DNA of 64,000 nucleotides from contig CAWAGF010000002.1 of NCBI GenBank assembly GCA_963781675.1, positions 249,776 through 313,775 on the forward strand. Direction: 5' to 3'. Numbering within the stretch: position 1 is the first letter of the stretch; each line of letters starts with the position of its first letter. Under the pieces are notes generated by a model. That model was not told where the DNA came from, did no database searches, and saw nothing but the letters and a program-made list of their open reading frames with translations. Made by a program: the position numbers and the translations under genes. This document shows positions 42,726 through 58,234 of the stretch, piece after piece. The DNA comes from an uncultured Actinomycetota bacterium. GTDB taxonomy: Bacteria; Actinomycetota; Actinomycetes; Mycobacteriales; SCTD01.

Positions 42726-42733
42726 GCTGAGGC
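42711..42733 (+). repeat. Left island-boundary direct repeat
   Basis: CTCAACCGCCGCTGAGCTGAGGC, 21/23 identical to 56654-56676. Confidence 0.75.
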
Positions 42734-42936
42734 AACGAGGCGTGCTTGAAGGACGACTGCCCACAGCGGACGTCGGTCTAGCCTTCGACACCGCGGGCCT
42801 TCCGTCAGGCGGTAGTGCCTGCTGCGGAAGGCGGCCGCGAGGAAACTGCCCGCACCCTGGCGGGTGCAGTCACCGAGGGCGCCCGACCGCCGCTGGCGCC
42901 GATCGTCCCGGCCACGAAACATGCCCCGATCAGCAC

Positions 42937-43569
42937 GTGAGCATCGAGACGATCCTTGCCTTCGCGGCGCTGGCAGCGGTGCTGGTGGTCATTCCCGGCC
43001 CCGCGGTCATCCTCGTGCTCAAGAGCGCGATGTTGCGTGGGCGCGGGTCCGCGATCATGACGGCGGTGGGCGTGCTCGCCGCCGACCTGATCTGGGCGAC
43101 GGCCTCCGTCGTCGGGCTCACGGCCCTGCTCGTCTCGTCGCAGGTGGCGCTCGACGTCGTCCGGGTCGTCGGTGCGGCCTACCTCTTCCTCCTCGGCGTG
43201 CGCCTTCTGATGACGCGCGAGTTCAGTCCCTCGGCCGACGCTCCTGCCCGTGGGAGCGGCAGCGTCACCCTGCGACGAGCCTTCGGTGAGGGCCTCGTCT
43301 GCGATTTGTCCAACCCCAAGACCGTCCTCGTCTACGCCAGAGTCATCCCGCAGTTCCTCAGCGCGTCCAGCTCGGGCTCGGACGTCTTGCTCCTGGGCGT
43401 CGTCTTCGCCGCCCCGGGTTTCGCCTTCTCGGCCCTCTACGCGTTCGTCTTCGGCGCAGCGCGACAGCTGCTCAGCAACGGGCCGGTCATGCGCAACGTC
43501 CTTCGCGGCAGCGGTGGACTTCTGATGGTCTTCAGGGTCGGCCTGGTGGTCGAGCGGCCTTCTCACTGA
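42937..43569 (+). CDS. LysE family translocator
   Basis: VIPGP, GAAYL..LG, LSNPK. Confidence 0.88.
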   Translation: MSIETILAFAALAAVLVVIPGPAVILVLKSAMLRGRGSAIMTAVGVLAADLIWATASVVGLTALLVSSQVALDVVRVVGAAYLFLLGVRLLMTREFSPSADAPARGSGSVTLRRAFGEGLVCDLSNPKTVLVYARVIPQFLSASSSGSDVLLLGVVFAAPGFAFSALYAFVFGAARQLLSNGPVMRNVLRGSGGLLMVFRVGLVVERPSH

Positions 43570-43680
43570 CGGGGCCGACCCGCCGAGGCCCTCCACGCCC
43601 TGCTTGCTCTCGCGGCGGTTCGTGGCCCCGAACGACGACCTGGGCCGAACGCGCCGACGGCGCCCCGCCGTCAGCGGGGC

Positions 43681-43699
43681 TGATCGCACTCGTCCCGGT
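43681..43699 (+). repeat. Degenerate copy of the island internal repeat
   Basis: TGATCGCACTCGTCCCGGT versus consensus TGATCGCACCCGCCCCGCC. Confidence 0.45.
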
Positions 43700-43731
43700 G
43701 TTCCGGACACGACGTCGGCCACTAGCGGTGT

Positions 43732-44358
43732 CTACACGCCGAGACCGGCGGCTCGACCCAGGGCCACGGCCTCTTCGCGGTTCGCCACGCCGAGCTTGGC
43801 GACGATGTCGGACACCCGGTTGCGGATGGTCTTCGGCGCCAGGAACAAGCGCGCGGCAACCTGCGAGGTGGGCAGCCCCTGCACCAGGAGGGACAGGATC
43901 TCGCGGTCGCGGGCGTCGAGGACAGCGAGCGCATCGCTCTGCGGCGCGCGCGCGGCGGCAGCGGTCACGGCCCGGCTCGCGCCCCGCCCCAGCACCATCG
44001 TGCCGCGGGCGGCGGAGTGGATCGCCGTGAGGATCTCCTCCGGATCGCTGTCCTTGAGCAGGTAGCCGTCCAGGCCGCCGCCCAGGCTCCGCAGCACGGC
44101 GTCATTGTCGGCGTGCATGGTGAGCACGAGGACGTGCAGCTCAGGCCAGCGCTCCTTGAGACGCCGCCCGAGCTCGATGCCGTCCCCGTCCGGGAGCTCC
44201 AGGTCGACCACCGCGACATCAGGTTCTCGATCCAGCGCGAGTGCCTCGGCGACGGATCGTCCCGTGCCGACGAGCTCGAGCCCCCCTTCGGATCGCACGA
44301 GTGCAGCAAGCCCCGAGAGGACGATCGGGTGGTCGTCGACGAGCAGCACCCGCGTCAT
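43732..44358 (-). CDS. NarL/LuxR family response regulator
   Basis: VLLVDDHP, DVAVVDL, GYLLKD; HTH LFLAPKTIRNRVS. Confidence 0.93.
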   Translation of the reverse strand: MTRVLLVDDHPIVLSGLAALVRSEGGLELVGTGRSVAEALALDREPDVAVVDLELPDGDGIELGRRLKERWPELHVLVLTMHADNDAVLRSLGGGLDGYLLKDSDPEEILTAIHSAARGTMVLGRGASRAVTAAAARAPQSDALAVLDARDREILSLLVQGLPTSQVAARLFLAPKTIRNRVSDIVAKLGVANREEAVALGRAAGLGV

Positions 44359-46052
44359 GCTGCGACGCCGCCGGTCGGCAGCTGGACGCACAGTCGGGTG
44401 CCGGTGGTCGCCGGGTGCACGTCGAGCCGGCCGCCGAGGTCTTCGGCACGCCGCCGCAATGAGGTGAGTCCGACGCCCGGGACGACGGCTCCACCGGCGC
44501 CGTCGTCGCACACCTCGACGAGGACGTGGGCGTCCCGGGTCGACACCTCGACCCGCACCTGCGTGGCGCTCGCGTGGCGGATGGCGTTCGTGATGCCTTC
44601 GGCGACGCAGCGGTAGATCGCGACGGTGACGTCGGCAGTCAGGTCCTCGTCGACCTGCGTCGTCAGCTCGATGCCGGGGGCCGTGGCCCCGAAGGAGCGG
44701 ACAAGGCGCTGGAGAGCCGAGGGGAGGTCGTCTCGGGCGAGCGCCGAGGGCGTGAGCCCCGAGACGATCCGACGAAGGTCACCCCGGCACTCGGCGAGCT
44801 CGGCCGACAAGGCGCTCAGCAGCGGTCCCGGCTGGGTCCGCAGCTGCGCCTGCACCCGCATGCTCATGCCTGCGAGGACCGGACCCAGGCCGTCGTGCAG
44901 GTCCCCCAGGATGCGGGCGCGTTCGGCCTCGCGCTGTCGAGTCACGTCCTGCCGGGCGTGCTCAGCCTCGACGGCCAGGCCGACGGCCCGAGCCACCAGG
45001 GCCACGGTGGGGAGCAGCTGGTCGACCCGCGCCACTTGACGCGGTTCCGGCCCCTCGGGCTGAGGCGACTGCAGGAGCAGGAACCCGACGCGGTCGCCAC
45101 CGACGTCGAGCGGGTGGACCAGCCAGCCCGGTTCGGGATCCGGCGCTTCGGCGCTGAGGAGCAGACGTCCCTGCGGATGACCGCTGGCGGCCGCGACCAT
45201 CGCTGCGGCCTTGCCGGCGAGCTCGCGGGGGGCGGCGTCGCGGTGGAGGTCGGCAGTGATCGCCGACACGTCCGCCGGCGTGAGGACGCCCGTCCCGTAA
45301 CGGCTTTCGACGGTGAAGCGGCGCAGCCGCAGGGCCGCTGGGGCGAGGAGCCCGGCCGCGGCCACGGCCACCACGGCAGCGGCGAGGTCGGGGTTCGGGG
45401 CCTGCACCCGATCGGCCACCCAACCCACGCCCACGCCGAGGGCGGCCGCGGTCAGCACTGTCCCCAGAGCCAGTCCGGCGTCCACCAGCGGCTCGTCGAC
45501 CGGGCGGAGGTTCACGGCCAGGACGAGCACCAGCACGAGTCCCGCCATCAGTAGGAGGCCGACAGACGTCACGGTGGCTGTGGCGCGGGGCGTTGCGGTC
45601 GCCGCTGCCGAGCTGACCGCCGCGACCAGCACGGCACCCCCCAGCACCAGCCACACCAGGCGGCGGCGGGACAGCCGGTCGGCGGCCGCGCCGTGCGCCC
45701 ACGTGAGCACACCCACGGCCAGCACGACACAGGTCACCAGGAGCTCCCGCCAGGTCTGCTCGTACGCAGGCCAGAAGCCTCCGTCGAGACGGGCGAGCGT
45801 CGTGCCGGCGGCCAGCAACGGGACGAGCGCCACCGCGATCAGTGCCCAGCCGAGCCGAGTCGTCGCCCCGCGGTCGAGCAGCAGGGTCCCGACAAACCCG
45901 AACAGCGGCCACGACATGGCGAAGACCGCACCGGTGGGCACCTCAGGGGCTGTCATTGCGACCATGGCCGGGAGCGCGGCCGCGGCCGTGGCGAGGGCGC
46001 CGACCGTCGAGGCGGCCGTCATCCCGCGCGTGGCAGGCACCATCGAGGTCAC
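44355..46052 (-). CDS. Membrane sensor histidine kinase (HisKA_3 type)
   Basis: ERARILGDLHDGLG, EGITNAIRHA, DDGAG, GVGL; N-terminal TM segments; start uncertain. Confidence 0.9.
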   Translation of the reverse strand: MTSMVPATRGMTAASTVGALATAAAALPAMVAMTAPEVPTGAVFAMSWPLFGFVGTLLLDRGATTRLGWALIAVALVPLLAAGTTLARLDGGFWPAYEQTWRELLVTCVVLAVGVLTWAHGAAADRLSRRRLVWLVLGGAVLVAAVSSAAATATPRATATVTSVGLLLMAGLVLVLVLAVNLRPVDEPLVDAGLALGTVLTAAALGVGVGWVADRVQAPNPDLAAAVVAVAAAGLLAPAALRLRRFTVESRYGTGVLTPADVSAITADLHRDAAPRELAGKAAAMVAAASGHPQGRLLLSAEAPDPEPGWLVHPLDVGGDRVGFLLLQSPQPEGPEPRQVARVDQLLPTVALVARAVGLAVEAEHARQDVTRQREAERARILGDLHDGLGPVLAGMSMRVQAQLRTQPGPLLSALSAELAECRGDLRRIVSGLTPSALARDDLPSALQRLVRSFGATAPGIELTTQVDEDLTADVTVAIYRCVAEGITNAIRHASATQVRVEVSTRDAHVLVEVCDDGAGGAVVPGVGLTSLRRRAEDLGGRLDVHPATTGTRLCVQLPTGGVAA

Positions 46053-46102
46053 GTGCGCATCATGGCGGGCATCTGACCCGTCGCGCAGCGGCCGGGGCGG
46101 GC

Positions 46103-46139
46103 CGGGACACGGGCGGGACGCTGCGGGAGCGATCGGGAC
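46103..46139 (+). promoter_or_regulatory. Helically phased CGGGA direct repeats, candidate response-regulator operator
   Basis: CGGGA at 46103, 46114, 46124 and 46134, between the divergent kinase and membrane-protein genes. Confidence 0.5.
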
Positions 46140-46222
46140 GGGAGGGGCCTTACGTACGGGACCCTCGCTCCTGCACGGTGGCGCCAGCCCCCGGACCCGC
46201 CGGGACGTACAGGAGGACATCG

Positions 46223-46720
46223 ATGACCGCTCCGACGCAAACCCCGTCCGCGCACGTCCCAGACACCCGCCGCCTGTCGCCTGCGCTCCTCGTCGCAGGC
46301 GCCGTCGCGCTGACGACGGTGACCAACCTGCTGTTCCAGGTGGCCGACATCGTGTTCACCGACAAGGACCCTCACCGCGCTGAAGGCCCGATCCAGAGCC
46401 TCAAGGGCATCAGCGTCATCGGGGCTGTCGCCCTAGCCGTAGCGCTGGCGATCGCCATCACCTGTTCCCGCGAAGCCAGCAAGGCGCGGACGGGCGCGAT
46501 GGCTCTCGGCGGCCTGTCCATCCTGACAGTCCCGATCTTCTGGTCGGGAGCGCCCGCCATCTTCGGCGCTTGCGCGGCGTGGCTCGGCGGGCTCGCCCGC
46601 GGATCGCACCCACAGGACGGAGCGGCGCGAGCACTCGGCCTCACGGGCGCCGTGATCGCGATGCTCTGCGTCGTCGCGACCTGGGGCGGCTACATCGCCT
46701 ACCTCATCAGCGAGTCCTGA
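46223..46720 (+). CDS. Membrane protein, likely target of the adjacent two-component system
   Basis: AGGAGG RBS; four to five hydrophobic segments. Confidence 0.75.
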   Translation: MTAPTQTPSAHVPDTRRLSPALLVAGAVALTTVTNLLFQVADIVFTDKDPHRAEGPIQSLKGISVIGAVALAVALAIAITCSREASKARTGAMALGGLSILTVPIFWSGAPAIFGACAAWLGGLARGSHPQDGAARALGLTGAVIAMLCVVATWGGYIAYLISES

Positions 46721-46990
46721 CCGCGACCGCGCACACGCTCGGCACGCCGCTGATGGCGCTACCAGGGCCGCCGTCGCTGCGATGGCGATGCCGGCCTCGT
46801 CCATGACGTGCTCATGCCGTTCTTGCTCATCACCGCCGCAATCGCCATCGCCCGCCGGCAGGCGGCCGATGGGGACCGCGAACACGTCCTGCTGTCCAGT
46901 GCATGAACCGCCCGGTCGTCTAGGACGTGCAGACCGCGCCGCCCCGGGTGGCCGGCTGCACACTCTCACCTTCTCCAGAGGGGGATCTAC

Positions 46991-48121
46991 ATGCGCGTGC
47001 TGATGTCGACGACGTCCGGGACCGGGCACTTCCGGCCACTCCTGCCGATCGCCGCCGCGTTGATCCGAGCAGGCCACGAGGTGGCGTGCGCTGCTCCCGC
47101 GGACGCGGCGGCGATGATCGCGCGGGAGGGCCTGCGGCACCTGCCCTTCGACGGGGTTGCGCCGGACGATCCCGAGCGCGCAGCGGCCTTCGCCCAGGTA
47201 CCCGCACTGGCGCCGGACGAGGCTGTCCAGCTCATCGGGTCCGTCATCTTCGGTCGGCTGAACACCACCGCGGCGCTGCCCGGCGCGCGGGCAGCCGTCG
47301 CGGAGTTCGCCCCAGACCTCGTGCTGCACGAGGCCGCAGAGCAGGGGGTCCGGCTGGCCGCCGAGGCTGCCGGAGTACCCGCCGTCGCGGTCGCGCCCTC
47401 GCTGTGGATCCGCGACTTCCCGCTCGCGATCGCGGCCGGCATAGCCGACCTGCGCGAGTCGCTTGGGCTAGAGCGGGACGCGGATGCACGCGCAGTCCTT
47501 GAAGGCGCAGGCACGTCCTGGTTCCCGCCGTCCTTCGACCTGCCCGACGCCCCCGCTCAGGTACGGCGGTTCCGCGACCCGTCACTGCCGGCACCGACGC
47601 CGGTCGAGGGCCGGTCGGTCGTCTACGTCACGCTGGGCACTGAAGCGCCGAACCTGCCGTTCTTCGAGCACGTGCTTCCGCAGATGGTGCGCGGGGCGGC
47701 GCGAGCGGGCTTCCCCGTCGTCGTCGCGACAGGCCGGCCGATCGAGCCAGCGCTGCTGGACGGCATCGACGGCGACGTACGGGTCGAGTCCTGGGTCGAC
47801 CAGGCCGAGGTCCTCCGTGCGGCACGCGTCGTGGTCTGCCACGCCGGTTCGGGCACCGTCTTGGGAGCGCTCGCCGCCCAGGTGCCGATCGTCGCCGTAC
47901 CGCTCTTCGCCGACCAACCCGACAACGCCGCGCGCATCGAAGCCACGGTCTGCGGCCTCAAGGTGCCGCCCGATGCCGACCGCATCGCGGCAGCCACCCG
48001 ACAGCTCTCCGCCAGCCAGCCCGACGGCTGCGTCCCCATGGGACAGGAGCTGAGCGCCCTTCCTCCCGCCGGTGACTCGGTGCCGTGGCTCGAGTCGTTG
48101 GCGGCTCGATCGCCTTCTTGA
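46991..48121 (+). CDS. GT1 family glycosyltransferase (macrolide/natural-product UDP-GT-like)
   Basis: GHFRPLLP, VYVTLGT, WVDQ, HAGSGT, PLFADQ. Confidence 0.9.
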   Translation: MRVLMSTTSGTGHFRPLLPIAAALIRAGHEVACAAPADAAAMIAREGLRHLPFDGVAPDDPERAAAFAQVPALAPDEAVQLIGSVIFGRLNTTAALPGARAAVAEFAPDLVLHEAAEQGVRLAAEAAGVPAVAVAPSLWIRDFPLAIAAGIADLRESLGLERDADARAVLEGAGTSWFPPSFDLPDAPAQVRRFRDPSLPAPTPVEGRSVVYVTLGTEAPNLPFFEHVLPQMVRGAARAGFPVVVATGRPIEPALLDGIDGDVRVESWVDQAEVLRAARVVVCHAGSGTVLGALAAQVPIVAVPLFADQPDNAARIEATVCGLKVPPDADRIAAATRQLSASQPDGCVPMGQELSALPPAGDSVPWLESLAARSPS

Positions 48122-48159
48122 CGACGGAGTACCCGCCCGCTTCGTCGAGGCATGGTGGA

Positions 48160-48174
48160 CGCACCCGCCCCGCC
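48160..48174 (+). repeat. Island internal repeat, copy 1
   Basis: Exact CGCACCCGCCCCGCC; its 3' part forms the hairpin CGCCCCGCC-TCG-GGCGGGGCG. Confidence 0.85.
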
Positions 48175-48310
48175 TCGGGCGGGGCGACAGCACAGTCAGG
48201 GTCAAGCTTTGCCTACCCCACCGAGCATCGGAAACGGCACTCCCCGCAGATCGCCGTCAGCATCCTCGGGGCGCCTCGACGTGGCAGCCTTCCGCTGTCA
48301 CGCTGCCGGC

Positions 48311-48481
48311 ATGAGCAACGACCCGGACCGCCGCTACGACGTAGCGCTGGAAGACCTAGAGCGCTCGGTGCACATCTGTCCGCAGGAGCTGACCGAAGCA
48401 GCGCCGGATCCGGAGCCGCATCTGTCTGCTTGGGCATGGGACGAACAGCGCAGGCAGGCGCGCCTGGCTGGTGGTGCGTAG
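48311..48481 (+). CDS. Small hypothetical protein (56 aa)
   Basis: MSNDPDRRYDVALEDLERSVH...; only ORF of note between two repeat copies. Confidence 0.45.
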   Translation: MSNDPDRRYDVALEDLERSVHICPQELTEAAPDPEPHLSAWAWDEQRRQARLAGGA

Positions 48482-48574
48482 CCCCGCTTTGCAGATGCCG
48501 CTAGGCCGGGGAAGTGACGACGGGTTCCGCCGGTTGCCGATGAGCCGCGCGGAAGCGCGAGAGCCGGCCAAGGT

Positions 48575-48594
48575 TGATCGCACCCGCCCCGCCT
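48575..48594 (+). repeat. Island internal repeat, copy 2
   Basis: TGATCGCACCCGCCCCGCCT. Confidence 0.85.
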
Positions 48595-48619
48595 GAAGCT
48601 GCTGGCCCGGCCGGGGCGC

Positions 48620-49100
48620 TCAGACCGACGCTGACGGCGGCACAGCCTGGAGCGGCACGTCCTTGGTCACCTCGATCTGTCCGAGGTGCTGGAAGACCTC
48701 TTCAAGGAGGTGCAGCACGACGGCATCGTCGTCGCCAACCCCGCCGTGCAGACGCCGCCGGGCGTCGTGGGGCACGCCCCCGCCCTCGGCCAGCCGGTGC
48801 ATGTCCTGCTCTACGTGCTGCAGGGCGAGGTCGACGGCGTCCCGGCACTCGGACAGCGTCGTGCGCCGGCTGAACTCGGAGTCCCGGTCGCGCGGCGTCG
48901 TGGGGCGGCCGAGGGCCACGTGACCCAGCCAGAACTCCGACACGATGCAGCAGTGCAGGACCAGCGCGCCCCACCGGGTTCGTCCCGCTGGCCGTTGGTC
49001 GCTCGTTGAGCAGCTTGTCACCCAGCGTCGTGGCGACGGCAAGCATCTGGCCGAAGCCGTAGCGGAGGTACGCGAGACCGGTGTCCGGTGCGAGCTGCAC
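48620..49100 (-). pseudogene. DinB/DUF664 family protein, frameshifted near 48970
   Basis: LNERP..SGTNPVG and ALVLHCCIVSEFW..RDRDSEF..LHLLEEVFQHLGQIE are split across two frames at a G run. Confidence 0.7.
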
Positions 49101-49153
49101 AGCGCAGCCTAGGCAGCTCGCGCCGGACAGCTGCGCAGGAGCCGGGACTCGGC

Positions 49154-49173
49154 TGCTCGCACCCGCCCCGCCT
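49154..49173 (+). repeat. Island internal repeat, copy 3
   Basis: TGCTCGCACCCGCCCCGCCT. Confidence 0.85.
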
Positions 49174-49206
49174 CATGCGCGATGAAGCGCCATCCTCGCT
49201 GAGGTG

Positions 49207-49854
49207 TCACAAGGCCGGGCTCTGCTCTGGCGTCGTCGCGAAGTGCCGCCAGGTCCGGTAGCGCCAGTGCCGGTACTCCTGAGGGGACCACCTGGTCGTG
49301 CGGGTCATCTGGAGATAGGTCTCCGGGCTTCCGAGAAGTCCGCAGGTGGCGATGATCCAGGGCAGGTCGCAGTCCGGGTCCAGGAGTGCGTCGTCCTGAA
49401 GGGTCGACCAGAACGTCTGGATGGCGTTCAGGACGCTGCCTCGGCCTCGCTGCGCTGAGGCTGCGATCACGGGCTCATCGAGTTCGACCTGCAGTGCCAC
49501 CGCGATGAGCGGAGCCAGACGCACGAACAACGCGGTGTTGCCCGCGGCCTCCGCGTAGAGCCGCTCTTCGAGGGTGGGGGCGGTAAGGGTGGTCCTCACC
49601 CAGTCGCGGTCGGCTAACGGGATCTGCCGGGCGTCGCCGACGATGGCCACGTCCATGACGCGCTTGAGCAGGTCGGCCTTCGTCGCGAAGCGGACGTAGA
49701 TGGTCCTGTCGGCAACGCCGGCGCTCAGCGCGACGTCGGTCAGCTTGGTGGCCCGGTAGCCGCGCTCCAGGAAGAGCTTCTGCGCTGCGGCAAGGATCCG
49801 CGCCTCCGTGCGCTCTGCCCGCGTACCGAACTGAGGGTTGACATCCGTCGACAC
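49207..49854 (-). CDS. TetR/AcrR family regulator
   Basis: RILAAAQKLFLERGY...VALSAGVADRTIYVRFATKADL HTH. Confidence 0.92.
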   Translation of the reverse strand: MSTDVNPQFGTRAERTEARILAAAQKLFLERGYRATKLTDVALSAGVADRTIYVRFATKADLLKRVMDVAIVGDARQIPLADRDWVRTTLTAPTLEERLYAEAAGNTALFVRLAPLIAVALQVELDEPVIAASAQRGRGSVLNAIQTFWSTLQDDALLDPDCDLPWIIATCGLLGSPETYLQMTRTTRWSPQEYRHWRYRTWRHFATTPEQSPAL

Positions 49855-49856
49855 GA

Positions 49857-49896
49857 AATGCAGTCTAACTGCATTCTGATATGCAGTCAGACTGCA
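49857..49896. promoter_or_regulatory. Two TGCAGT-N3-ACTGCA palindromes, candidate TetR operators
   Basis: AATGCAGTCTAACTGCATT (49857-49875) and TGCAGTCAGACTGCA (49882-49896) between the divergent tetR and VOC genes. Confidence 0.8.
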
Positions 49897-49912
49897 AGAG
49901 GAGAGGGTCCTC

Positions 49913-50401
49913 ATGACGACGGCAACATCCGCCCCGCGGCTGGCGGGCGTGCACCACCTGAAGCTGCCGGTAGCAGACCTCCTCCGCTCCCGCCAGTGGT
50001 ACGAGTCCCGGCTCGGCTACGAGGTCGTCCAGGAGTTCCTTGAGGAGGGGGTGCTCATGGGCCTGGTCATGGCGCACCCCGACGGCGGCCCCTCGTTCGC
50101 ACTGCGCCTCGACAGCGAGCGCGCGAAGGCGGCGGCCGGCTTCGACTACTTCTCCATCGGGGTGCCGGACAAGGAGGCCATCGAGACCCTGGCGACTCGA
50201 CTATTGGATCTCGGCGAGGAGCACGCCGGCGTGCACTTCGCCACCATCGGCTGGGTGCTGCCGATGCTGCACGACCCGGACGGGCACGAAGTCCGCTTCT
50301 ACACGGTGGCGCAGCACACCAGCGCCACCCCCGAGCACGTTCTCGTCGTCGAGGACGCCGTCGGATCTGAGGCCGAGCGGGAGCGGCAGCAGCTGTCGTG
50401 A
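49913..50401 (+). CDS. VOC/glyoxalase family protein
   Basis: VHHLKLPVADL..SRQWY..LG, DPDGHEVRF. Confidence 0.9.
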   Translation: MTTATSAPRLAGVHHLKLPVADLLRSRQWYESRLGYEVVQEFLEEGVLMGLVMAHPDGGPSFALRLDSERAKAAAGFDYFSIGVPDKEAIETLATRLLDLGEEHAGVHFATIGWVLPMLHDPDGHEVRFYTVAQHTSATPEHVLVVEDAVGSEAERERQQLS

Positions 50402-50532
50402 CCCGCCAGCTCCGCCCAAGCTCGCTCCACCGCATCGTCCGCGCCACCGCTCCTGCGTCGGGTGCGTGCCCGGTGCTTCGGGCCCGCCCGCTCGCCGCCC
50501 CGTCCACCCACCACTAGCGCAGGAGACTGCTC

Positions 50533-50853
50533 ATGGAACTGATACTGATGGTCTTGCTGCCCTTCCCCCTCGGCTTCCTCGTGCGGCAGCGCCTCGTGGC
50601 GATGGTCGCCTACATGGCCGTCCAGGCGTTCGTGTTCACCGTTCAGACGACATCGCTGCTCTTGGAGTGGGCCGGCGGCTCCTCCCGCGCCTTCGGCGGC
50701 CGCTTCCCGCAGTACGAGCAGAGCGAGGTCTTCGCGTACGCCCTGGTGAACGCCGTCATCTACGCCGTCGGCATCGGGCTGGTCTACCTCGGCCACCGAG
50801 TCGCCGCCCGCCGGCGGGCCGCGAACAGGTCGCCAGCTGAGCTGGTGCACTGA
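50533..50853 (+). CDS. Small membrane protein
   Basis: AGGAG RBS; three hydrophobic segments. Confidence 0.7.
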   Translation: MELILMVLLPFPLGFLVRQRLVAMVAYMAVQAFVFTVQTTSLLLEWAGGSSRAFGGRFPQYEQSEVFAYALVNAVIYAVGIGLVYLGHRVAARRRAANRSPAELVH

Positions 50854-50887
50854 CCTTGGCCGTCGAGCCCCCAGCGCGGCGGCCGCG

Positions 50888-51364
50888 GTGAGCGGTCAGA
50901 ACCGGTCCGTGCGCGTGGGGCTCGTGCCGCTCGACGACGAGTCCGCTCTGTTGCTGGTGCGCGCCCAGATGCGAGAGCTGATGGAGACCTGGCAGCACCG
51001 GGAGGTCAGCGACGACGACGTCACGGCAGAGCTGGGCACACGACCGATGGCCGGGCTGGCGTTGATGGCGCTCGCCCGGTCGGAGGAGGCGCCCGTCGGC
51101 TGCGGCGCCCTGCGCGTCGTCGGCACCATCGGCGAGCTGACGAAGGTGTACGTGGTGCCAACGGCACGAGGAACCGGAGTCGGGGAAGCCGTCGTCGGCG
51201 CCCTCGAACAAGCCGCCCGCGCACGCGGACTGGTCCTCATCCGTCTCGACACCCGCGCCGACCTGCCCGCTCCGGCCGCGCTCTACCGCCGTCTCGGCTA
51301 CCAGGAGGTGCCGCCATGGCACGACCGCCCCTACGCCGACCACTTCTTCACCAAGGACCTCTAG
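50888..51364 (+). CDS. GNAT family N-acetyltransferase
   Basis: PVGCGAL, VYVVPTARGTGVG, ALYRRLGY. Confidence 0.9.
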   Translation: MSGQNRSVRVGLVPLDDESALLLVRAQMRELMETWQHREVSDDDVTAELGTRPMAGLALMALARSEEAPVGCGALRVVGTIGELTKVYVVPTARGTGVGEAVVGALEQAARARGLVLIRLDTRADLPAPAALYRRLGYQEVPPWHDRPYADHFFTKDL

Positions 51365-51501
51365 CGGCATGCGGCGAACGTCGCGAGCCCCGTTCCGACA
51401 CACGGCCGCAGGTCATCGGCGAGCGCCGGGCGGTGCCGCTCCACCGACCGCGTCCAAGCGCCTACCCCGGCCGGGCGCGGGACGCGCCGTCGGCCGGATC
51501 A

Positions 51502-51551
51502 GGAGGTGATCGCACCCGCCCCGCCACAGGCGCCTGTGTCCTGGCGGGTGC
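51502..51551 (+). repeat. Island internal repeat, copy 4, forming a full hairpin
   Basis: GGAGGTGATCGCACCCGCCCCGCC; GCACCCGCC pairs with downstream GGCGGGTGC around an inner CACAGG-CG-CCTGTG stem. Confidence 0.85.
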
Positions 51552-51679
51552 CAGCACCGAGCCGCTCTACGGCATACGAGTCGCACTCGACGATCGACTG
51601 CTGCGGCGGGTCGCGGCCAGCAGCCGTCGCAGCGGCACCCGGGCCGCCCGCACGACCCACCGCCGTCCCGACCTCAGGG

Positions 51680-51850
51680 TCAGGACGCCAGGGGGATCAG
51701 CGGGTGGATGACGGGCAGCCCGGCCAGTGCTTCCCCGGCGGCCCCAAGAGCTATGCGCACATGAGGCGTTCCCATGTGCGCATCGAGGTCTGCCTGCGCC
51801 CGCCAGGTCTCGATGGTGATGAACGTTCCCAGCTGGGCCGCAGGACTCCG
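51680..51850 (-). pseudogene. 3' remnant of an antibiotic-biosynthesis-monooxygenase (ABM) family gene
   Basis: GTFITIETWRAQADLDAHMGTPH; N-terminal half missing. Confidence 0.6.
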
Positions 51851-51898
51851 TTCGGGTTGGCACGTGTACGACATCGCCTCGCGGCACGTACCACTGGC

Positions 51899-52687
51899 TT
51901 AGTGCTTGAACGGGTTGAGCCTGCGTCCGAGGGCGTACTGCAGCCGGAACGGCACGGGCCGGTTCATGTGGGACAGCACCTTGTTGACGGTGCCGGGGAC
52001 GCAGACGGGCTTGCCGGCGTTGACGGCGGCCCAGCCCTCGCGCACGACGTCGCCGGCCTCCTGCCACAGGACCTCGGGGAGCTTGGCGGCGGCGTCGGCG
52101 GTGCCCATCTCCTGGTGGAACTCGGTGCGGGTGAAGCCGGGGCACAGAGCGGTGACGTGGAGGCCGTGGGGCTTGAGCTCCATGTCCAGGCTCTGCGACA
52201 TCTGCAGGACGTAGCTCTTGATGCCGCCGTAGAGCAGGCTCGCGGAGGGCGGGGCGAAGGCCGCGAGCGAGCTGACGTTGACGATGCGCCCGTAGCCGCG
52301 CTGCTTCATGCCGGGGATGACGAGGTGCGTGAGCTCTGTGACGGCGGTGACCATGAGCTGAATCTCGCCGGCGAGGGACGACCAGGGGGTGTCGGCGAAG
52401 GCGGTCGAGCCGGACATGCCGGCATTGTTGATGAGCACGTCGACCGTGAGGCCCTGCTCCGCACCGTGGTCCATGACGGCACGGGGCGCTGCCGAGTCGG
52501 TGAGGTCGGCGGAGAGGGTCTCCACGCGGACGCCGTGCCGGGCGGTGAGGTCGGCGGCGAGCTCGGTGAGCCGGTCGGCCCGGCGCGCGACCAGGAGCAG
52601 GTCGTGTCCGTCGGCGGCCAGGGTCCGCGCGAAGCTGGCGCCGATGCCGGCGGAGGCGCCGGTGACGAGGGCGGTGCGGCGGGTCAT
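51899..52687 (-). CDS. Short-chain dehydrogenase/reductase
   Basis: TGASAGIG, NNAG, YGGIK, CPGFTRTEF. Confidence 0.93.
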   Translation of the reverse strand: MTRRTALVTGASAGIGASFARTLAADGHDLLLVARRADRLTELAADLTARHGVRVETLSADLTDSAAPRAVMDHGAEQGLTVDVLINNAGMSGSTAFADTPWSSLAGEIQLMVTAVTELTHLVIPGMKQRGYGRIVNVSSLAAFAPPSASLLYGGIKSYVLQMSQSLDMELKPHGLHVTALCPGFTRTEFHQEMGTADAAAKLPEVLWQEAGDVVREGWAAVNAGKPVCVPGTVNKVLSHMNRPVPFRLQYALGRRLNPFKH

Positions 52688-53634
52688 GCGGAGGCTCCGG
52701 GGGCAGGTGTGCCGGGCGTCCCCGTCGTGGGGTCGACCGGGACGTGGGTGGTGAGGAAGGCGAGCTGGTCGGTGAGGGTGGTGGCGAAGTACGGCTCGAC
52801 GTAGGGGTCGAAGTGGCCGCAGTCGTAGACGTGCACGGTGGCGTCGGCCATCCGCGCCGCGGCCTTCTCGGCGACGTGGCGCGGTGTGACGGCGTCGTGG
52901 GCGGCGATCTGGATCAGCGCCGGACAGCGAACGTCGGCCGCGTGCCTGATCGGGGAGTACCGGCCGATCTTGAGGCCGATGCGGGCGGCGACGTGCTGCG
53001 GGTAGTCGCCCGTCTTCAAGCCGGCCGCGGCGATCTGCGTGTCGAGGCCGGGGACGGCGTCGGGGCTGGTCATGACGGCCGTCGTGCCGGGCAGTCCGAC
53101 GGCCTCGACGTAGACGGGGTCCCGGCCGAGCAGTGCCGCGGCCTGGTCGCGCAGCGCGAATCTCGCCAGGCGCAGTGATGACCGCAGTCCGGTCGCGCGG
53201 ACGGCGGCGGGGCCGCTGACGTGCGGGACCTGGGCGATGATCGCGGCAAGCGGCTCGCCCTTCCCGGCGAGGGTGATGACGTGGCCGCCGCCGAAGGAGG
53301 TGCCCCAGGCGACGACCCGTCGGGCGTCGGCGCCCGGCAGGGCCCGGGCGAAGCGCAGCGCCGCGCGCCAGTCCTGGAGCTGCATCGTCACGTCGAGGAC
53401 CTGTCGGGGCGTGCCCTCGCTCTCGCCGAAGCCGCGGTAGTCGAAGACGACGACGACGTAGCCGGCCTCGGCGAAGCGCTCGGCGTAGGCGTACAGGCGC
53501 AGCGCCCGGACGCCGCCGAAGCCGTGCCCCATCACGATCACCGGTCGCGCGCCTGTACCGCCGGGGCGGTACAGGCGCGCCGCGCAGCGCACGCCCTGGG
53601 ACAGGACGTGCTCCTCGGCGGTCTGGAACGTCAT
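52684..53634 (-). CDS. Alpha/beta hydrolase
   Basis: MGHGFGG, FDYRGFGES, nucleophile GTSFGGG, GHFDPY. Confidence 0.9.
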   Translation of the reverse strand: MTFQTAEEHVLSQGVRCAARLYRPGGTGARPVIVMGHGFGGVRALRLYAYAERFAEAGYVVVVFDYRGFGESEGTPRQVLDVTMQLQDWRAALRFARALPGADARRVVAWGTSFGGGHVITLAGKGEPLAAIIAQVPHVSGPAAVRATGLRSSLRLARFALRDQAAALLGRDPVYVEAVGLPGTTAVMTSPDAVPGLDTQIAAAGLKTGDYPQHVAARIGLKIGRYSPIRHAADVRCPALIQIAAHDAVTPRHVAEKAAARMADATVHVYDCGHFDPYVEPYFATTLTDQLAFLTTHVPVDPTTGTPGTPAPGASA

Positions 53635-53662
53635 GCGCACCTCGCTGGTCCGGTCGCTCACG

Positions 53663-55042
53663 TCAGACGTACGCGAGCTGCGCGTGGGTCGGCTTGCTGG
53701 CGGCTCGGCGGCTGCCGGCCTTGCGCTCGGTACGCAGCGCCAGCATGTACTCGTCGAAGTCGACCTGGATGGTGTGCCGCTTGCTGTTGACGTAGCGCTT
53801 GGCGATGGCGTCACGGTGCCGCTGGATCTCGGCGGCCATCTCGGCATCGGACGGCAGCGCGTAGCGGCCCTGGAAGTGGTCGGCGACGAGCTCGGACTGG
53901 CGCTCCGCGATCGGCATGATCGCCCCCAGCGGCTGTACCAGGCCGATGAAGCAGAGGCCCGGCACGCTCGGGTGGAACATGCGCTCGTACAGCCTGACCT
54001 CGTTGTCGCCGCGGGGGTCGAGGAAGTCGCGGTCTAAGAACGGGAAGCTGATCTTGTAACCGGTGCAGTACACGACGAGGTCTGCGGCGACCCGGCTGCC
54101 GTCGGTGAAGACGACGTCGGCGCCCTCGAACCGGTCGATGTTCGGCTTGGGCGTGACCGCACCGTGGGCGAGCCGGTCCAGGATGCGGCTGCTCATGGTC
54201 GGGTGGGCCTGGGCGAACTTGTGGTCCGGCTCCTGCAGGCCGTACTTGGACATCGAGCCGGTGGCGGCGCGCATCATGAGCCGGGCGAGGGGCCAGCGGA
54301 TCGCCGAGGGGATCCGCTCGTGGCCGGCGATCTGGTCGTAGGGCTTGCCGAAGACGTACTTCGGGATGATGTGCACGCCGCGGCGGTGCGCCAAGTAGGT
54401 CTCGGCAGCGTGGTAGCTGGCGTCGACGGAGATGTCCATGGCCGAGTTGCCCATGCCGAGCACGACGACCTTCTTGCCGGCGAGCTGCTGCTCGTCCTTG
54501 TAGTCGTGGGAGTGGATCTGCTCGCCGGTGAAGGTACCGGCGCCGGGAAAGCCGGGCTCGGGCAGGCGCGGGTCCCAGTGATGGCCGTTGGCCACCATGA
54601 CCGCGCCGTAGCGGCGGGTCTCGCCAGTGGTCAGCCGTAGGTCGAAGCCTCCGCCGGCCAGTGGCTGGACGTGCGCGACACCGGTCTGGAAGGTGATCTT
54701 GTCGCGGAAGCCGAAGTGGTCGACGTAGTCGTCGAAGTACTTGGCGATCTGGTCGTGCCGGGCGAAGTTCGGGAGGTGCTCCGGCATCGGGAAGTCGCTG
54801 AACTCCATGCGGCTGCGCGAGGTGTTGATGTGCAGCGACTTGTACGACGCCGACACGCCGTTGCTGTTGCCCCACACCCAGTTGCCGCCGACGCGGTCGG
54901 ACAGCTCGAAGCAGTCGAACGGGATCCCGCGCTCGTGCAGGACCTTCGCCGAGGCGATGCCCGACGAGCCGGCCCCGATGACGCAGACGCGCTCGCGCTC
55001 CTCGGCGGTCAGAGCGTCTGTCGGCGTGCTCACGGTGGTCAT
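53663..55042 (-). CDS. Flavin-containing monooxygenase (FMO family)
   Basis: IGAGSSG, FTGEQIHSHDYK fingerprint, GMGNSA, CTGY. Confidence 0.93.
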   Translation of the reverse strand: MTTVSTPTDALTAEERERVCVIGAGSSGIASAKVLHERGIPFDCFELSDRVGGNWVWGNSNGVSASYKSLHINTSRSRMEFSDFPMPEHLPNFARHDQIAKYFDDYVDHFGFRDKITFQTGVAHVQPLAGGGFDLRLTTGETRRYGAVMVANGHHWDPRLPEPGFPGAGTFTGEQIHSHDYKDEQQLAGKKVVVLGMGNSAMDISVDASYHAAETYLAHRRGVHIIPKYVFGKPYDQIAGHERIPSAIRWPLARLMMRAATGSMSKYGLQEPDHKFAQAHPTMSSRILDRLAHGAVTPKPNIDRFEGADVVFTDGSRVAADLVVYCTGYKISFPFLDRDFLDPRGDNEVRLYERMFHPSVPGLCFIGLVQPLGAIMPIAERQSELVADHFQGRYALPSDAEMAAEIQRHRDAIAKRYVNSKRHTIQVDFDEYMLALRTERKAGSRRAASKPTHAQLAYV

Positions 55043-55061
55043 GCGGGCTCCTCTACGCGGA

Positions 55062-55093
55062 AGTGACCAGCGGTCATATGACCAGTGGTCACT
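55062..55093. promoter_or_regulatory. Tandem TGACC-N3-GGTCA palindromes, candidate TetR operators upstream of the FMO operon
   Basis: GTGACCAGCGGTCAT followed by ATGACCAGTGGTCAC; the same motif recurs at 56324-56338. Confidence 0.8.
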
Positions 55094-55109
55094 GTAGGGT
55101 GCGGTGTCA

Positions 55110-55632
55110 TACCGCGCAACCCCTTCGTCGAGACCGGCGTTGGACCACGCGGGCTCGAGCTGGTGTCCGCGCGGCTTTCGGGCCCCGGACTCCGCCGGCG
55201 TCCTGGTTGCCCCCGTCCCGGCCCGTCCCGCGCTCGGGTCGCTGCTGTCGATCGCCCGGCGGCGCCCGGCCGACGCCGCCCGGGTCGTGGTCGGAGGCTC
55301 ACTGCCCCTGGCGCCGCGAGTACCTGTCCAACCAGCAGAAGGCCGCTGACGCCCAGCGGCTTGCCGACCGGTGCGGCCCAGAGTCGCCACTGGTGCAGTA
55401 CCAGCTCCTGCTGCACCGCCCGGCCGTGCAGCCACGAGGCGATGCTCCAGTGCTCGTGCTCGCTACCCGGGACGACGCTCTCGTGCCCTTCGCCGACGTC
55501 CGCCGCACCGCCGCGCACTACGACGCCGAGCTGCGAACCTTCCCCGGCACGGGCCTTGACCTCATGCTCGACGCCGACTGGAGCACCGTTCACCGCCATG
55601 ATCAATGGGTGGAGGACGTCCTCGCCGGCTGA
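55110..55632 (+). pseudogene. Degraded alpha/beta hydrolase remnant
   Basis: PVLVLATRDDALVP...FPGTGLDLMLD (the expected GHDLML His is lost); 5' half absent or frameshifted. Confidence 0.6.
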
Positions 55633-55644
55633 CCCCGGCGCCCC

Positions 55645-56307
55645 TCAGTGCCCGACATCCTCATGCGGACCGAACGCATCGCGCAGCGTAGCGATCACGC
55701 GGTCGATCGCGCGCACACGCTCAGCCCGGTCCTCGCTGCCCAGGCCCAGCACGGGGTCCAGGCCAGGGCTGTGCGACGCCAGGGCGATGTGCGGCAGCAG
55801 GACCAGCAGCAGGGCCAGGAACGCGTCGACATCAGCGTCCTCCCGCAGGTGGCCCCGCTGCTGCGCCCCTGCCATGAGCGGCCGGAGCACGGCCAGGTAG
55901 TGCTCGTTGGCCGCGCCCCGTACCGCCATCCGTGCGGAGCGGTCCGGCTCCAAGTTCACCGCCACCGTCATCGCGAGCTCCAACGGGTGCGAGTGGAAGT
56001 ACTCCTCCCACGCCACGACGAGGTCCCGCAACGGCCCGAAGAACCCCTGCCCCCAGTCCATCGCCCTGATGGCGCTCTCCATGTCGGAGTGGATCCGGGC
56101 GCTCGCCCGCTCGGACAGGTAGGCGTACAGGTCCTGCTTGTCGTGGAAGTACTGGAACAAGCTGCCCTTGGCCACTCCCGCCTCGCGGGCGATGACGTTC
56201 AGGCTTCCTCCGGAGAACCCGCGCACCGCGAACTCGTCCTGAGCTGCTCTCGTCACAGCCTGCCGACGGGCTTCAGGCAGGCGCTCCCAGGTCGACGTCG
56301 GCACCAT
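55645..56307 (-). CDS. TetR/AcrR family regulator
   Basis: EFAVRGFSGGSLNVIAREAGVAKGSLFQYFHDK. Confidence 0.92.
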   Translation of the reverse strand: MVPTSTWERLPEARRQAVTRAAQDEFAVRGFSGGSLNVIAREAGVAKGSLFQYFHDKQDLYAYLSERASARIHSDMESAIRAMDWGQGFFGPLRDLVVAWEEYFHSHPLELAMTVAVNLEPDRSARMAVRGAANEHYLAVLRPLMAGAQQRGHLREDADVDAFLALLLVLLPHIALASHSPGLDPVLGLGSEDRAERVRAIDRVIATLRDAFGPHEDVGH

Positions 56308-56323
56308 CCCCACCCCCTGATCC

Positions 56324-56338
56324 GTGACCACCGGTCAC
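56324..56338. promoter_or_regulatory. TGACC-N3-GGTCA palindrome, candidate autoregulatory TetR operator
   Basis: GTGACCACCGGTCAC just upstream of the tetR start. Confidence 0.75.
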
Positions 56339-56535
56339 ATCCTCGCAGACGACGGTGGCAGGAGCACTGACGCACGACCGGCGGCCGGGGTCGCGACGCG
56401 AGCAGGCCCGTCAGATCGTGCGGGAACCCGATCCGCGCGAGAAGTCCAGCACCAGTGCGGCGATCGTCCTGAGGGCAGCGGTCACCCGGTCGGCACCCCC
56501 TGTCGCCGCGAGGCCCGGTGCCGCTCGAGCGGGAT

Positions 56536-56560
56536 GGAGGTGATCGCACCCGCCCCGCCT
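56536..56560 (+). repeat. Island internal repeat, copy 5
   Basis: GGAGGTGATCGCACCCGCCCCGCCT; 24 bp identical to the copy at 51502. Confidence 0.85.
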
Positions 56561-56653
56561 CGATCACGTCACGATCGGGCCGTCGAGCCCGCACCAGCGG
56601 GCCGCAACGCCGCACCCGCTGACTCATGAGCGGCCTTACGTCTTGCTGCCGAA

Positions 56654-56676
56654 CTCGACCGGCGCTGAGCTGAGGC
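56654..56676 (+). repeat. Right island-boundary direct repeat
   Basis: CTCGACCGGCGCTGAGCTGAGGC, 21/23 identical to 42711-42733. Confidence 0.75.
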
Positions 56677-56704
56677 TGCCCGCCGGCAGCAGACCGCCTC
56701 AGCT
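56668..56704. terminator. Hairpin at the end of the convergent GT4 gene
   Basis: AGCTGAGGC...GCCTCAGCT inverted repeat. Confidence 0.5.
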
Positions 56705-58207
56705 GCCGTCGAGCCCGGCGATCAGCTTCTCGAGCCGGGCGTCGAAGGCGTCCAGCGAGAAGTCCTGCGCCCGTACGACGGCGGAGGCAGACATCTCGGC
56801 CCGGCGCTCGGGGTCGTCGACCAGCTCGCGGGTGCGTTCGGCGAAGCCGTCCAGGTCGAGGACGTGCCGGCCGTCCACGCCGTCGCGCACCGTCTCCACC
56901 AGGCCGCCGGCGCCGAGGACGACCGGCACCGCTCCCGCCGACATCGCCTCGACCGTCGAGATGCCGAAGTGCTCGAGGCGGTCGGGGTCGGCGTCCGCGT
57001 CCTCCCCGAGACCGGCCGCGTGCCAGTAGACGGCGGCCTGCGCGTAGAGGGTGTCGAGCTCCGACCCCAGCGCGTTCGCGTGCACCTCGACCGGGTAGCG
57101 GCCGGCGGCCTCCTGCACGCTGCGCAGGTAGTCGCGCCCCTCGGCCGCGCAGCCGCCGACCAGGTGCAGCGTCCAGCCCGCGAGGCCGCCGTCGACCAGC
57201 CGCCGGAAGGCCTGCACCAGCTCGAGCTGCTTCTTGCTGTGGCCGCGGCCGGTGGGGAAGAACCGCCCGACGCTCAGCACCACCGGCCCCTTGTCGCCCG
57301 GCGACCGCATGGAGACGGGCGGGTGCAGGACGTCGGCCGGGCGCTGCCAGAGCCGCTGCACCCAGCCGGCGGTGAACGCGGAGTTCGCGACCAGGGCGTC
57401 GTAGCCGTCCAGCCAGTCGGTGGAGGTGCCCGGCTCGAGGCCGCGACGGGTGGCGCGCGCCACCCAGCCGCCGCGGCCGAGGGCGACGCCGACCACCGGC
57501 ACGCCGAGCGTCCGGGTGTCGTCGCCGCCGACGAGCTCGGCCGGCACGAAGCCGTCCGAGGCGACGACCACCTGCACCGGCACGCCCGCGGCCGGGCTGA
57601 CGACCCGCGTGCGCAGCGCCCGGCCGCTCCACCGCTCGACCGGCGCCGGAGCGGCCAGCTCGGTCGCCGCACTCTCCTGGCCGTCCACGAGCAGCCGCAC
57701 GCGGGTCGGCCCCGCCGCGGGAGGGCGGGCGAACCCGACGAGCACGGTGAGGTCGACGGGCTGCCCGGGCGCGGTCGTGACGAGCAGCGTCCCCTCGCCG
57801 TCGGTCCACGTCGTACGCCCCTCGCGGCCGTGGAAGCCGGCGCCCCACTCGACCCGCGGCAGCTGCGTGCCCGGCGCTGCCGTGAGGCCGCTCATCGACG
57901 TCGGGAAGTGCACGACGTAGACGTTGCGGCGGGCCGCACCGGCCTCGCGGCTGCGGTGGCTGACGTTGACGAACAGCTCGAGGTCCCGGCTGGCCGCCGT
58001 CACCGCGCGCGAGGTCTGCGGGACGACCCGCACGGTGCAGCCCGACAGGTCCAGCGACAGCCGCTCGCCGAGCCGGTCGAGGTCGAGCTCCTCGTGCGCG
58101 AGCAGCTGCACCGGTCCGCGCCGGGCGAGCAGCTGCGCGACGGCGCCGCCGTAGGTCTCGGCCCCGCCGCCGGTGCTCCAGTAGCGGTTGTACACGGCGG
58201 CAGTCAC
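56699..58207 (-). CDS. GT4 glycosyltransferase with an inserted domain; paralog of 38935..40482
   Basis: AAVYNRYWSTGGGAE, ANSAFT, VGRFF..GHSKKQ, EHFGISTVEAMSAG. Confidence 0.9.
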   Translation of the reverse strand: MTAAVYNRYWSTGGGAETYGGAVAQLLARRGPVQLLAHEELDLDRLGERLSLDLSGCTVRVVPQTSRAVTAASRDLELFVNVSHRSREAGAARRNVYVVHFPTSMSGLTAAPGTQLPRVEWGAGFHGREGRTTWTDGEGTLLVTTAPGQPVDLTVLVGFARPPAAGPTRVRLLVDGQESAATELAAPAPVERWSGRALRTRVVSPAAGVPVQVVVASDGFVPAELVGGDDTRTLGVPVVGVALGRGGWVARATRRGLEPGTSTDWLDGYDALVANSAFTAGWVQRLWQRPADVLHPPVSMRSPGDKGPVVLSVGRFFPTGRGHSKKQLELVQAFRRLVDGGLAGWTLHLVGGCAAEGRDYLRSVQEAAGRYPVEVHANALGSELDTLYAQAAVYWHAAGLGEDADADPDRLEHFGISTVEAMSAGAVPVVLGAGGLVETVRDGVDGRHVLDLDGFAERTRELVDDPERRAEMSASAVVRAQDFSLDAFDARLEKLIAGLDGS

Positions 58208-58210
58208 GCA

Positions 58211-58230
58211 GCCGCACGCTAGCGTGCGGC
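58211..58230. promoter_or_regulatory. Perfect 20-bp palindrome with a TAGCGT -10-like box on both strands
   Basis: GCCGCACGCTAGCGTGCGGC fills the 27-bp gap between divergent GT4 genes. Confidence 0.6.
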
Positions 58231-58234
58231 CCTC

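Follow-up and report, generated by a model that had tools for sequence, protein, structure and literature searches.

We analyzed a 64,000-nt stretch of the genome of an uncultured Actinomycetota bacterium (hereafter the window, to which positions refer unless stated otherwise) in which copies of a short intergenic sequence, all in one orientation, divide a 13.9-kb island into modules of accessory genes. The window corresponds to G000:C2:249776–313775 of an assembly (G000) of 3,535,381 bases in 7 contigs, which has 74.5% G+C and is 85% complete. The repeated sequence is the well-conserved arm and the C-rich spacer of an imperfect palindromic site of approximately 30–58 bp. The site is confined to the island within this genome. 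Sites of the same family are present in other assemblies of soil Actinomycetota, and homology between contigs ends there at the sites. We give about even chances to the interpretation that site-specific recombination at this palindrome made the junctions, and that the window holds a fossil array, or one acted on in trans, of site-bounded cassettes.

Anatomy of the site

The array in the window consists of 7 sites and 6 intervals. The sites are as follows:

42852–42874, + strand: S0, orphan second-arm half-site, matching the loop end and second arm of the complete site at 51540–51558
43681–43700, + strand: S1, degenerate copy, in which 18 of 20 nt (counted by eye) match the ...CCCCGGTG variant seen in other genomes
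48154–48186, + strand: S2, C-rich spacer preceded by a first arm with 2 changes and followed 3 nt downstream by a 9-bp complement (folding z = −2.14)
48573–48593, + strand: S3, GTTGATC variant
49152–49172, + strand: S4, GCTGCTC variant
51505–51558, + strand: S5, the sole complete long-hairpin site of the window (z = −3.60; 0 of 200 shuffles were as stable)
56539–56568, + strand: S6, first arm, spacer and partial second arm (CGATCAC)

An exact 15-mer occurs on the + strand only, at 48160, 48579, 49158, 51511 and 56545, giving five copies within 8.4 kb, and 24 nt are common to the copies at 51511 and 56545 (GGAGGTGATC, the 15-mer and further nucleotides). A preliminary description of the sequence had reported these five copies, the shared 24 nt and the degenerate copy at 43681, all of which were confirmed. 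It had missed the half-site S0, and the site that it presented as a bare 15–24-mer is actually half of an imperfect palindrome.

Alignment of the complete forms gave a length of approximately 55–58 nt, comprising a 16-nt first arm, a partly conserved 14–22-nt loop and a second arm; in the window the two arms are located at 51505–51520 and 51543–51558. The 15-mer is therefore part of the first arm together with the spacer. S5 aligned over approximately 55 nt with sites in four other contigs (L075, L078, L087 and L089), and S6 was identical over 30 nt to a site in the metagenome contig L083. Compact forms found elsewhere have two 11–12-nt arms around CGCCCC(G), with the second arm directly after ...CCCCG (L093 and L095, for example). 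The outer heptamers of the site are G[GT]TGATC and GATCACC. Many copies, including 4 in the window, consist of the first arm and spacer only, followed by unrelated or barely related sequence. The continuation ...CCGCCT was found in 4 of the 5 window copies, and both copies in L088 continue with ...CCCCGGTG.

The first arm and the C-rich stretch that follows it were invariant across copies, and the second arm varied without compensating changes. This pattern points to a half-site recognized by a protein, not to a hairpin maintained by selection. Pairing with the downstream sequence was better than in shuffled sequences for 4 of 27 family copies, and folding was significant for S5 and S2 among the 7 window sites; on these two counts the hairpin was ruled out as the conserved feature.

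The 10 nt preceding the motif (GGAGGTGATC; window 51501–51510 and 56535–56544, and contigs L075, L082 and L087) were kept in approximately 5 of 28 copies. They are complementary to what we take to be the 3′ tail of 16S rRNA, and no start codon follows this Shine–Dalgarno-like part.

Copies in the genome and in related genomes

The exact 15-mer was counted 6 times in the genome, with 5 of the copies inside the island; the sixth, at C6:325022 on the − strand, opens a signal-peptide-like coding frame. An 18-mer form allowing up to 2 mismatches gave 7 matches in the genome versus 1 for the reversed control. When the genome was scanned with a hidden Markov model built from 28 family copies, the five island copies alone had E < 0.2, and the next match had E = 0.68. 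All window copies are intergenic on a gene map based on open reading frames (ORFs), Pfam, frame plots and the G+C content of third codon positions (GC3).

The motif was present at 0–3 copies per genome in 40 relatives, which is the background level. Across 400 other genomes drawn from the class, no genome had more than 2 matches to the 18-mer at up to 1 mismatch. Single matches were found in 38 of these 400 genomes; most of the 14 that were fetched fall within coding sequence of strong periodicity and appear to be chance matches, whereas L114 and L116 look like members of the site family and L107 and L113 are possible members. G508 carried one exact 18-mer match. The tallies on relatives and on the 400 class genomes, like those on flank homology and PadR-ABC homologues below, take in G021, G030, G455, G508 and G515.

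These counts in the genome, the relatives and the class indicate a real motif with clustered, co-oriented copies, as opposed to a repeat spread over the whole genome. The preliminary description had called the motif island-specific, co-oriented and intergenic, and had named scattering through the genome, as expected of a generic repetitive extragenic palindromic (REP) sequence or terminator, as the result that would speak against it; the search of the genome and its relatives upheld the first statement and ruled out the generic repeat. In the scan for intrinsic terminators, no T-run was found at the sites and none of 3 terminator-like calls fell on a site. Small ORFs starting at the GTG of the motif, and − strand ORFs ending at it, were also rejected, since the frames differ between copies (by eye). 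No Rfam family was found at E ≤ 1 in 42000–58000, and the complete site had no match in the plasmid and phage collections. The motif strings were not found in the main texts of the literature searched, and a keyword-level search found no such sites described for Actinobacteria.

Sites and homology breakpoints in other assemblies

Sites with 18–26 nt identical to the window copies were found in other assemblies. An exact-word scan of metagenome contigs returned 14 stretches, some of which are chance matches in coding sequence; L075, L078, L081, L082 and L083 share 22–58 nt with window copies. A scan of species genomes returned 47 single matches, of which L017, L021, L026 and L044, from assemblies of Egibacteraceae, Mycobacteriales and Frankiales, are true relatives. 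Contigs with several copies always had them in one orientation (4 in L078, 3 in L083, 2 each in L017, L087, L088, L089 and L122, and 6 in the window), so that 15 of 15 additional copies follow the direction of the first copy in 8 of 8 arrays. L122 comes from a genome of the same genus, and the window holds the largest array among those found. The highest copy number in one searched genome was 8, in G412, where the copies occur as co-oriented pairs. An orphan second-arm half-site was located at the upstream end of 4 of the 4 arrays examined (window 42852, L087 19063, L094 416 and L089 9799); the exact 16-mer of S0 also opens the arrays in L087 and L094, and the half-site in L089 differs from it by 1 mismatch.

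The cargo between sites elsewhere includes PadR with an ABC ATPase and an FtsX permease, two GmrSD-type genes, an EEP-family enzyme, an HTH-IrrE pair and MarR/EamA. The cargo of the arrays, in the window and elsewhere, comprises self-contained accessory functions, and the cargo genes supported by Pfam are mostly antisense to the site as oriented.

We compared 35 sites with 400-nt flanks, all against all; 225 of the resulting alignments spanned the site in each of the two partners. The alignment was restricted to the site in 219 of these, extended to the left only in 3 and to the right only in 3, and none had at least 40 nt on both sides. Homology stopped at the site in 6 of 6 informative contig pairs. 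L017, L078 and L114 have 60–76 nt to the left of the site and the site itself in common and diverge at ...CCCCG, and L114 and L122 have the right side alone in common. The existence of both left-sharing and right-sharing pairs indicates that the site belongs to neither neighbouring gene alone. One unit bounded by two sites was found in L026 (245–1176) and L083 (1538–609), which are 92% identical over 933 nt; the match begins exactly at one site and stops approximately 12 nt beyond the following one, with unrelated sequence on the outer sides.

The rightmost interval of the array, which carries SDR, alpha/beta hydrolase, FMO and TetR genes (hereafter the FMO module), is covered over 51540–56349 by soil-metagenome contigs at 90–99% identity. 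The match to one soil contig of 974 letters (92% identical) begins at 51540, where the CCT preceding the second arm of S5 starts, and 553 letters of this contig precede the matched part. On their right-hand side the soil contigs have unmatched parts of 88–210 nt.

One subtype of the site has a conserved left extension of 60–76 nt (L017 5059–5124; L078 6767–6832 on the − strand; L114 at approximately 390–461). It contains two direct repeats of approximately 12 nt (TCGACG..CGCTCA) and a short frame that starts with ATG and ends at a TGA within the site. This extension could contain accessory binding sites or a tiny ORF.

The island and its borders

The island occupies 42728–56710 and is inserted between two convergent core genes. 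The features at its borders are as follows:

41262–42725, + strand: left flank gene, with its stop codon at 42723–42725, no Pfam hit, and 77–84% identity to G002, G003, G010 and G018 up to 42727
42713–42733, + strand: left copy of a direct repeat, covering the last codons and stop of the left flank gene
56657–56677, + strand: right copy of the direct repeat
56699–58735, − strand: right flank gene, a GT4-type glycosyltransferase (Pfam), with its stop codon at 56699–56701

Homology to genomes of the same genus ends at 42727 and resumes at 56710/56711. The locus is empty in G002, where the flanks abut with overlapping stop codons, and in G018, where 34 nt lie between the flanks. The same spot holds 3.6 kb and 2.2 kb of other DNA in G003 and G010, respectively; this DNA lacks the motif and has no comparable repeats. 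The motif was not found within 4 mismatches in the empty site of the relatives. These results bear out the earlier view of the region as a genuine insertion with conserved genes on both sides.

The direct repeat that brackets the island is 21 nt long and identical at 19 of 21 positions, 14 of them consecutive. Its exact 14-mer occurs twice in the genome, once at each island border, and 3 of 500 shuffles produced a shared word of 14 nt or longer. The island therefore shows two features of integration, absence from close relatives and a direct repeat derived from the target. A third, an integrase at one end, was not found: no recombinase family was detected among the island ORFs or in the window, in agreement with the preliminary description, and no tRNA or tmRNA gene that might serve as an attachment site was found in the window. 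The G+C content of the intervals is 0.69–0.73, versus 0.745 for the genome.

A 106-nt inverted repeat (40203–40308 and 56870–56975, 77% complementary) lies in a gene to the left of the island and in the GT4 gene to the right. These are probably paralogous glycosyltransferase segments.

Origin of the array

In the mechanism that we propose, the sites would be junctions between exchangeable accessory-gene modules, each module having a second-arm half at one border and a first-arm half at the opposite border. Half-sites at module ends are what recombination within the complete site of a circle is expected to leave, and this structure suggests that the arrays were built or reshuffled by site-specific recombination, with the crossover placed within the palindrome. 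The recombinase would act in trans. Past import or assembly is the probable origin of the array, which may now be inactive. It was probably inherited with the island and is now decaying, because the full palindrome is left in S5 alone among the 7 sites, a few others retain weak or partial second arms, and S1 is the most eroded copy.

There is a fair chance that the array is the trace of an undescribed recombination system. A broader proposal, which we put forward tentatively and at somewhat below even chances, is that soil Actinomycetota carry an undescribed cassette system whose palindromic site of approximately 30–58 bp is unlike attC and dif, is recombined by an enzyme and builds one-directional arrays of regulator-plus-enzyme, efflux or defence modules. 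Should these palindromes be recombination sites, a cassette-capture system would exist in a phylum thought to be without one, with detoxification, efflux and anti-phage genes as its cargo; soil metagenomes could be searched for mobile accessory modules with the site as a short sequence tag, and the recombinase could be sought by co-occurrence. If they mark only junctions of short-homology exchange, they would still explain a mosaic hotspot between two core genes.

Several findings weigh against site-specific recombination as the origin of the array. The homologues of the window modules had no site nearby, namely SDR with the hydrolase in G010 and G022, the TetR-VOC pair and GNAT in G010 and G018, and hydrolase-FMO-TetR in G169, and most of their homology limits are gene ends, not the motif. 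The FMO module, which G169 holds over 52726–56348 at 84–88% identity, has its right limit in G169 and in the soil contigs at 56348/56349, 190 nt from S6. The TetR-VOC pair and GNAT are neighbours in G010 in a different arrangement, so that the interval itself is rearranged relative to G010. The PadR-ABC module of G412 has homologues in G424 and G435 without the site. The earlier suggestion that modules begin and end at the motif is supported for contigs elsewhere, where the breakpoints coincide with it, and is not supported by the homologues of the window modules. The proposal of a recombination site regenerated by tandem acquisition is supported by the co-oriented arrays between modules elsewhere. 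The island possibly arrived as one block, since it is bracketed by a 21-nt repeat of its own. The six informative breakpoint pairs come from few contigs, some of which are possibly related, and a clear second arm is absent from most internal window sites, as the folding results also illustrate. No excision joint at the motif was seen among 15 of the 31 joints, in data consisting of contigs.

A further point on the same side is that no recombinase was found near any array in the genomes examined. The genome has three PF00589 matches, all outside the window: two are Xer-like genes, and the third, at G000:C2:4528–4839, is weak and 245 kb distant. Serine recombinases, Y1 transposases and DDE_Tnp_1 were not found in the genome, and no IntI reached the cut-off; the best match to TIGR02249 scored 79.6 bits against a cut-off of 265 and falls on the Xer-like genes. 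The 23 tyrosine-recombinase matches in G411–G414 all fall on contigs that lack the motif. Such negative results carry little weight, because G000 is 85% complete, the other assemblies are incomplete and the contigs are short.

Alternative explanations

We considered it unlikely, if less so than the other alternatives, that the site is a REP-like or terminator-like palindrome at gene ends in mobile DNA. The breakpoints would then have arisen by homologous or illegitimate recombination, or by template switching, at the shared 18–26 nt, and the island would be one block from an element-rich donor. The next credible coding gene to the right of the window sites is on the − strand in 6 of 6 cases, with a stop codon 27–37 nt from the motif in three, as expected of such an element, and the complete sites form stable hairpins. 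The flanking repeat of the island, the failure to find a recombinase and the site-free module homologues in relatives are likewise consistent with it. Against it, a dispersed high-copy family was not seen in the searched genomes (a maximum of 8, in the co-oriented pairs of G412, and no more than 2 in the 400 class genomes). Neither a T-run nor a terminator-like call was found at any site, and hairpin potential was significant in just 4 of 27 copies. An invariant first arm beside a decaying second arm argues that the sequence was kept and not the structure. The presence of both left-sharing and right-sharing pairs also speaks against it, and an identity of 18–26 nt is short for RecA-dependent exchange.

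Non-autonomous cassettes with terminal inverted repeats, similar to mobile insertion cassettes and moved by a transposase in trans, are an improbable source of the array. The complete palindromes would then be the abutted ends of neighbouring cassettes. The ends of the FMO module are indeed inverted over 16 nt (51543–51558 and 56539–56554), the ends of the whole array (42859–42874 and 56539–56554) agree at 14 of 16 positions, and DDE transposase genes lie near the arrays in L021 and L083. These two transposases are unrelated to each other and DDE_Tnp_1 is absent from the genome, so that they were rejected as the movers. No target-site duplication was seen next to the ends (by eye), and no matching insertion sequence was found in the genome. 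The internal copies are all co-oriented, and the loops of the complete sites are homologous between genomes, which is unexpected for independent side-by-side insertions. The single IS110-type gene was rejected as a source because its borders carry no motif; it is located at G000:C1:1298839–1299297 and is the only IS110-family (DEDD) transposase gene of the genome, present in a single copy.

A shared operator through which one regulator controls all modules is highly improbable: the copies are intergenic, and GGAGGTGATC has the rRNA complementarity noted above, but the copies lie at 3′ ends or between convergent genes and not at promoters, no start codon follows the Shine–Dalgarno-like part, the arrays elsewhere have no regulator in common, and 18–26-nt identity across distant taxa is unusual for an operator.

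Comparison with known systems

Site-specific recombination at the palindrome invites comparison with integrons and with other systems of site-bounded modules. The available part of a survey of 2016 records no complete integron in Actinobacteria (Cury et al. 2016, PMC4889954). [quoted passage not shown] The sites were co-oriented in 8 of 8 arrays and breakpoints fall at sites, as with sites that bound exchangeable cassettes. Site variants in the window and in L088 tend to match within an array, and some intervals contain no ORF, which is a further likeness.

The cores of attC sites, R″ and R′, read RYYYAAC ... GTTRRRY. The sites analyzed here have no such cores, as the preliminary description had pointed out, and carry the heptamers G[GT]TGATC and GATCACC instead. 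They also differ from CALIN in that no IntI was found at the family cut-off and in that the modules are multi-gene, occupy both strands and have their own regulators.

The dif modules of Acinetobacter, as described in one source (PMC13141974), are likewise modules without a recombinase of their own, and the short sites at their borders consist of two inverted arms around a short spacer. Conservation is higher in one arm, and a housekeeping enzyme (XerC/XerD) acts on the pdif sites in trans; the genome analyzed here has two genes that appear to be Xer-like. That source describes pdif sites as resembling the host dif, alternating in orientation and having a 6-bp spacer (PMC13141974). In contrast, the sites in the window are co-oriented and chromosomal and have a spacer of approximately 7–8 bp or much longer; neither a likeness to the host dif with its 11-6-11 layout nor an alternating orientation was found. 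A dif-like identity was rejected, with the best ungapped identity to the dif of F. alni being 8 of 28 positions (PMC3025954). The genome has its own single dif-like site at G000:C6:548917–548944, with 6 mismatches to the published Frankia alni dif, approximately 25 kb from an Xer-like recombinase gene (C6:574433–575248).

Genomic islands can grow by tandem accretion at an attachment site, as with cis-mobilizable elements beside integrative conjugative elements. The island shares with them an insertion between core genes, a direct repeat copying the 3′ end of a gene, internal repeated sites and the lack of an integrase. It differs in that its internal site and its flanking repeat are distinct sequences, intervals can be just 0.4 kb long, and no conjugation or integration genes were seen.

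REP sequences and bacterial interspersed mosaic elements, which are associated with RAYT transposases, are small GC-rich imperfect palindromes in intergenic DNA, and the same description fits the site. They number hundreds genome-wide, versus 5 copies in one island here, and no Y1/RAYT gene was found in the genome.

Module contents

The intervals between the sites hold the following features:

42937–43569, + strand: LysE-type exporter (Pfam PF01810, E 2e-28)
43732–44511, − strand: LuxR-type response regulator (Pfam, frame plot)
44355–46220, − strand: HisKA_3 histidine kinase ORF (Pfam, frame plot)
45842–46720, + strand: weak DUF7937-like membrane ORF (Pfam)
46991–48121, + strand: GT1-family glycosyltransferase (Pfam)
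48187–48572: interval in which neither ORF has a Pfam family and no frame looks convincingly coding (GC3 0.60)
48620–49042, − strand: DinB/mycothiol-S-transferase-like gene (Pfam PF04978 and PF12867, weak), with its stop codon 27 nt from the motif
49207–49914, − strand: TetR (Pfam)
49913–50401, + strand: VOC/glyoxalase (Pfam)
50533–50853, + strand: small membrane protein
50888–51364, + strand: GNAT (Pfam)
51567–51898: stretch of 330 nt without a clear coding frame (GC3)
51899–52687, − strand: SDR (Pfam)
52684 to approximately 53640, − strand: alpha/beta hydrolase (Pfam)
53663 to approximately 55000, − strand: FMO (Pfam)
55039–55605, − strand: ORF of the FMO module with no assigned family
55645–56331, − strand: TetR of the FMO module (Pfam)

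The ORFs of the LuxR-type regulator and the HisKA_3 kinase overlap, and their starts are uncertain. The preliminary description had assigned one ORF to the interval at 48175–48578, which has no convincing coding frame (GC3 0.60) and is possibly a cassette without an ORF. The − strand ORFs at 48213–48437 and 51567–51896 were rejected as genes (GC3 of 0.60 and 0.66, respectively; no Pfam family). Apart from these corrections the gene content agreed with the list reported earlier, and the TetR gene of the SDR-hydrolase-FMO operon was reassigned to the − strand, which makes it co-directional with the operon.

Two further inverted repeats were observed within the intervals. One of 16 pairs at 49859–49896 (TGCAGTCTGACTGCAT...) lies in the divergent gap between TetR (−) and VOC (+) and is probably a TetR operator. 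The other, a perfect 11-nt repeat with a 9-nt spacer at approximately 51775–51810 (ATGCGCACATG ... CATGTGCGCAT), lies in the 330-nt stretch downstream of SDR.

The summed depth of the soil contigs was approximately 3–32 over 51706–56241 (SDR-hydrolase-FMO-TetR) and mostly below 6 over the rest of the island and both flanks; the runs, available as contigs, contained small shares (0.05–0.14) of the sampled words, and the uncovered parts of the island carry no information. This uneven depth indicates that close relatives of the FMO module are far commoner in those soils than relatives of the rest of the island. The genome itself contains a paralogue of FMO, 70% identical, at G000:C1:1576116–1577381.

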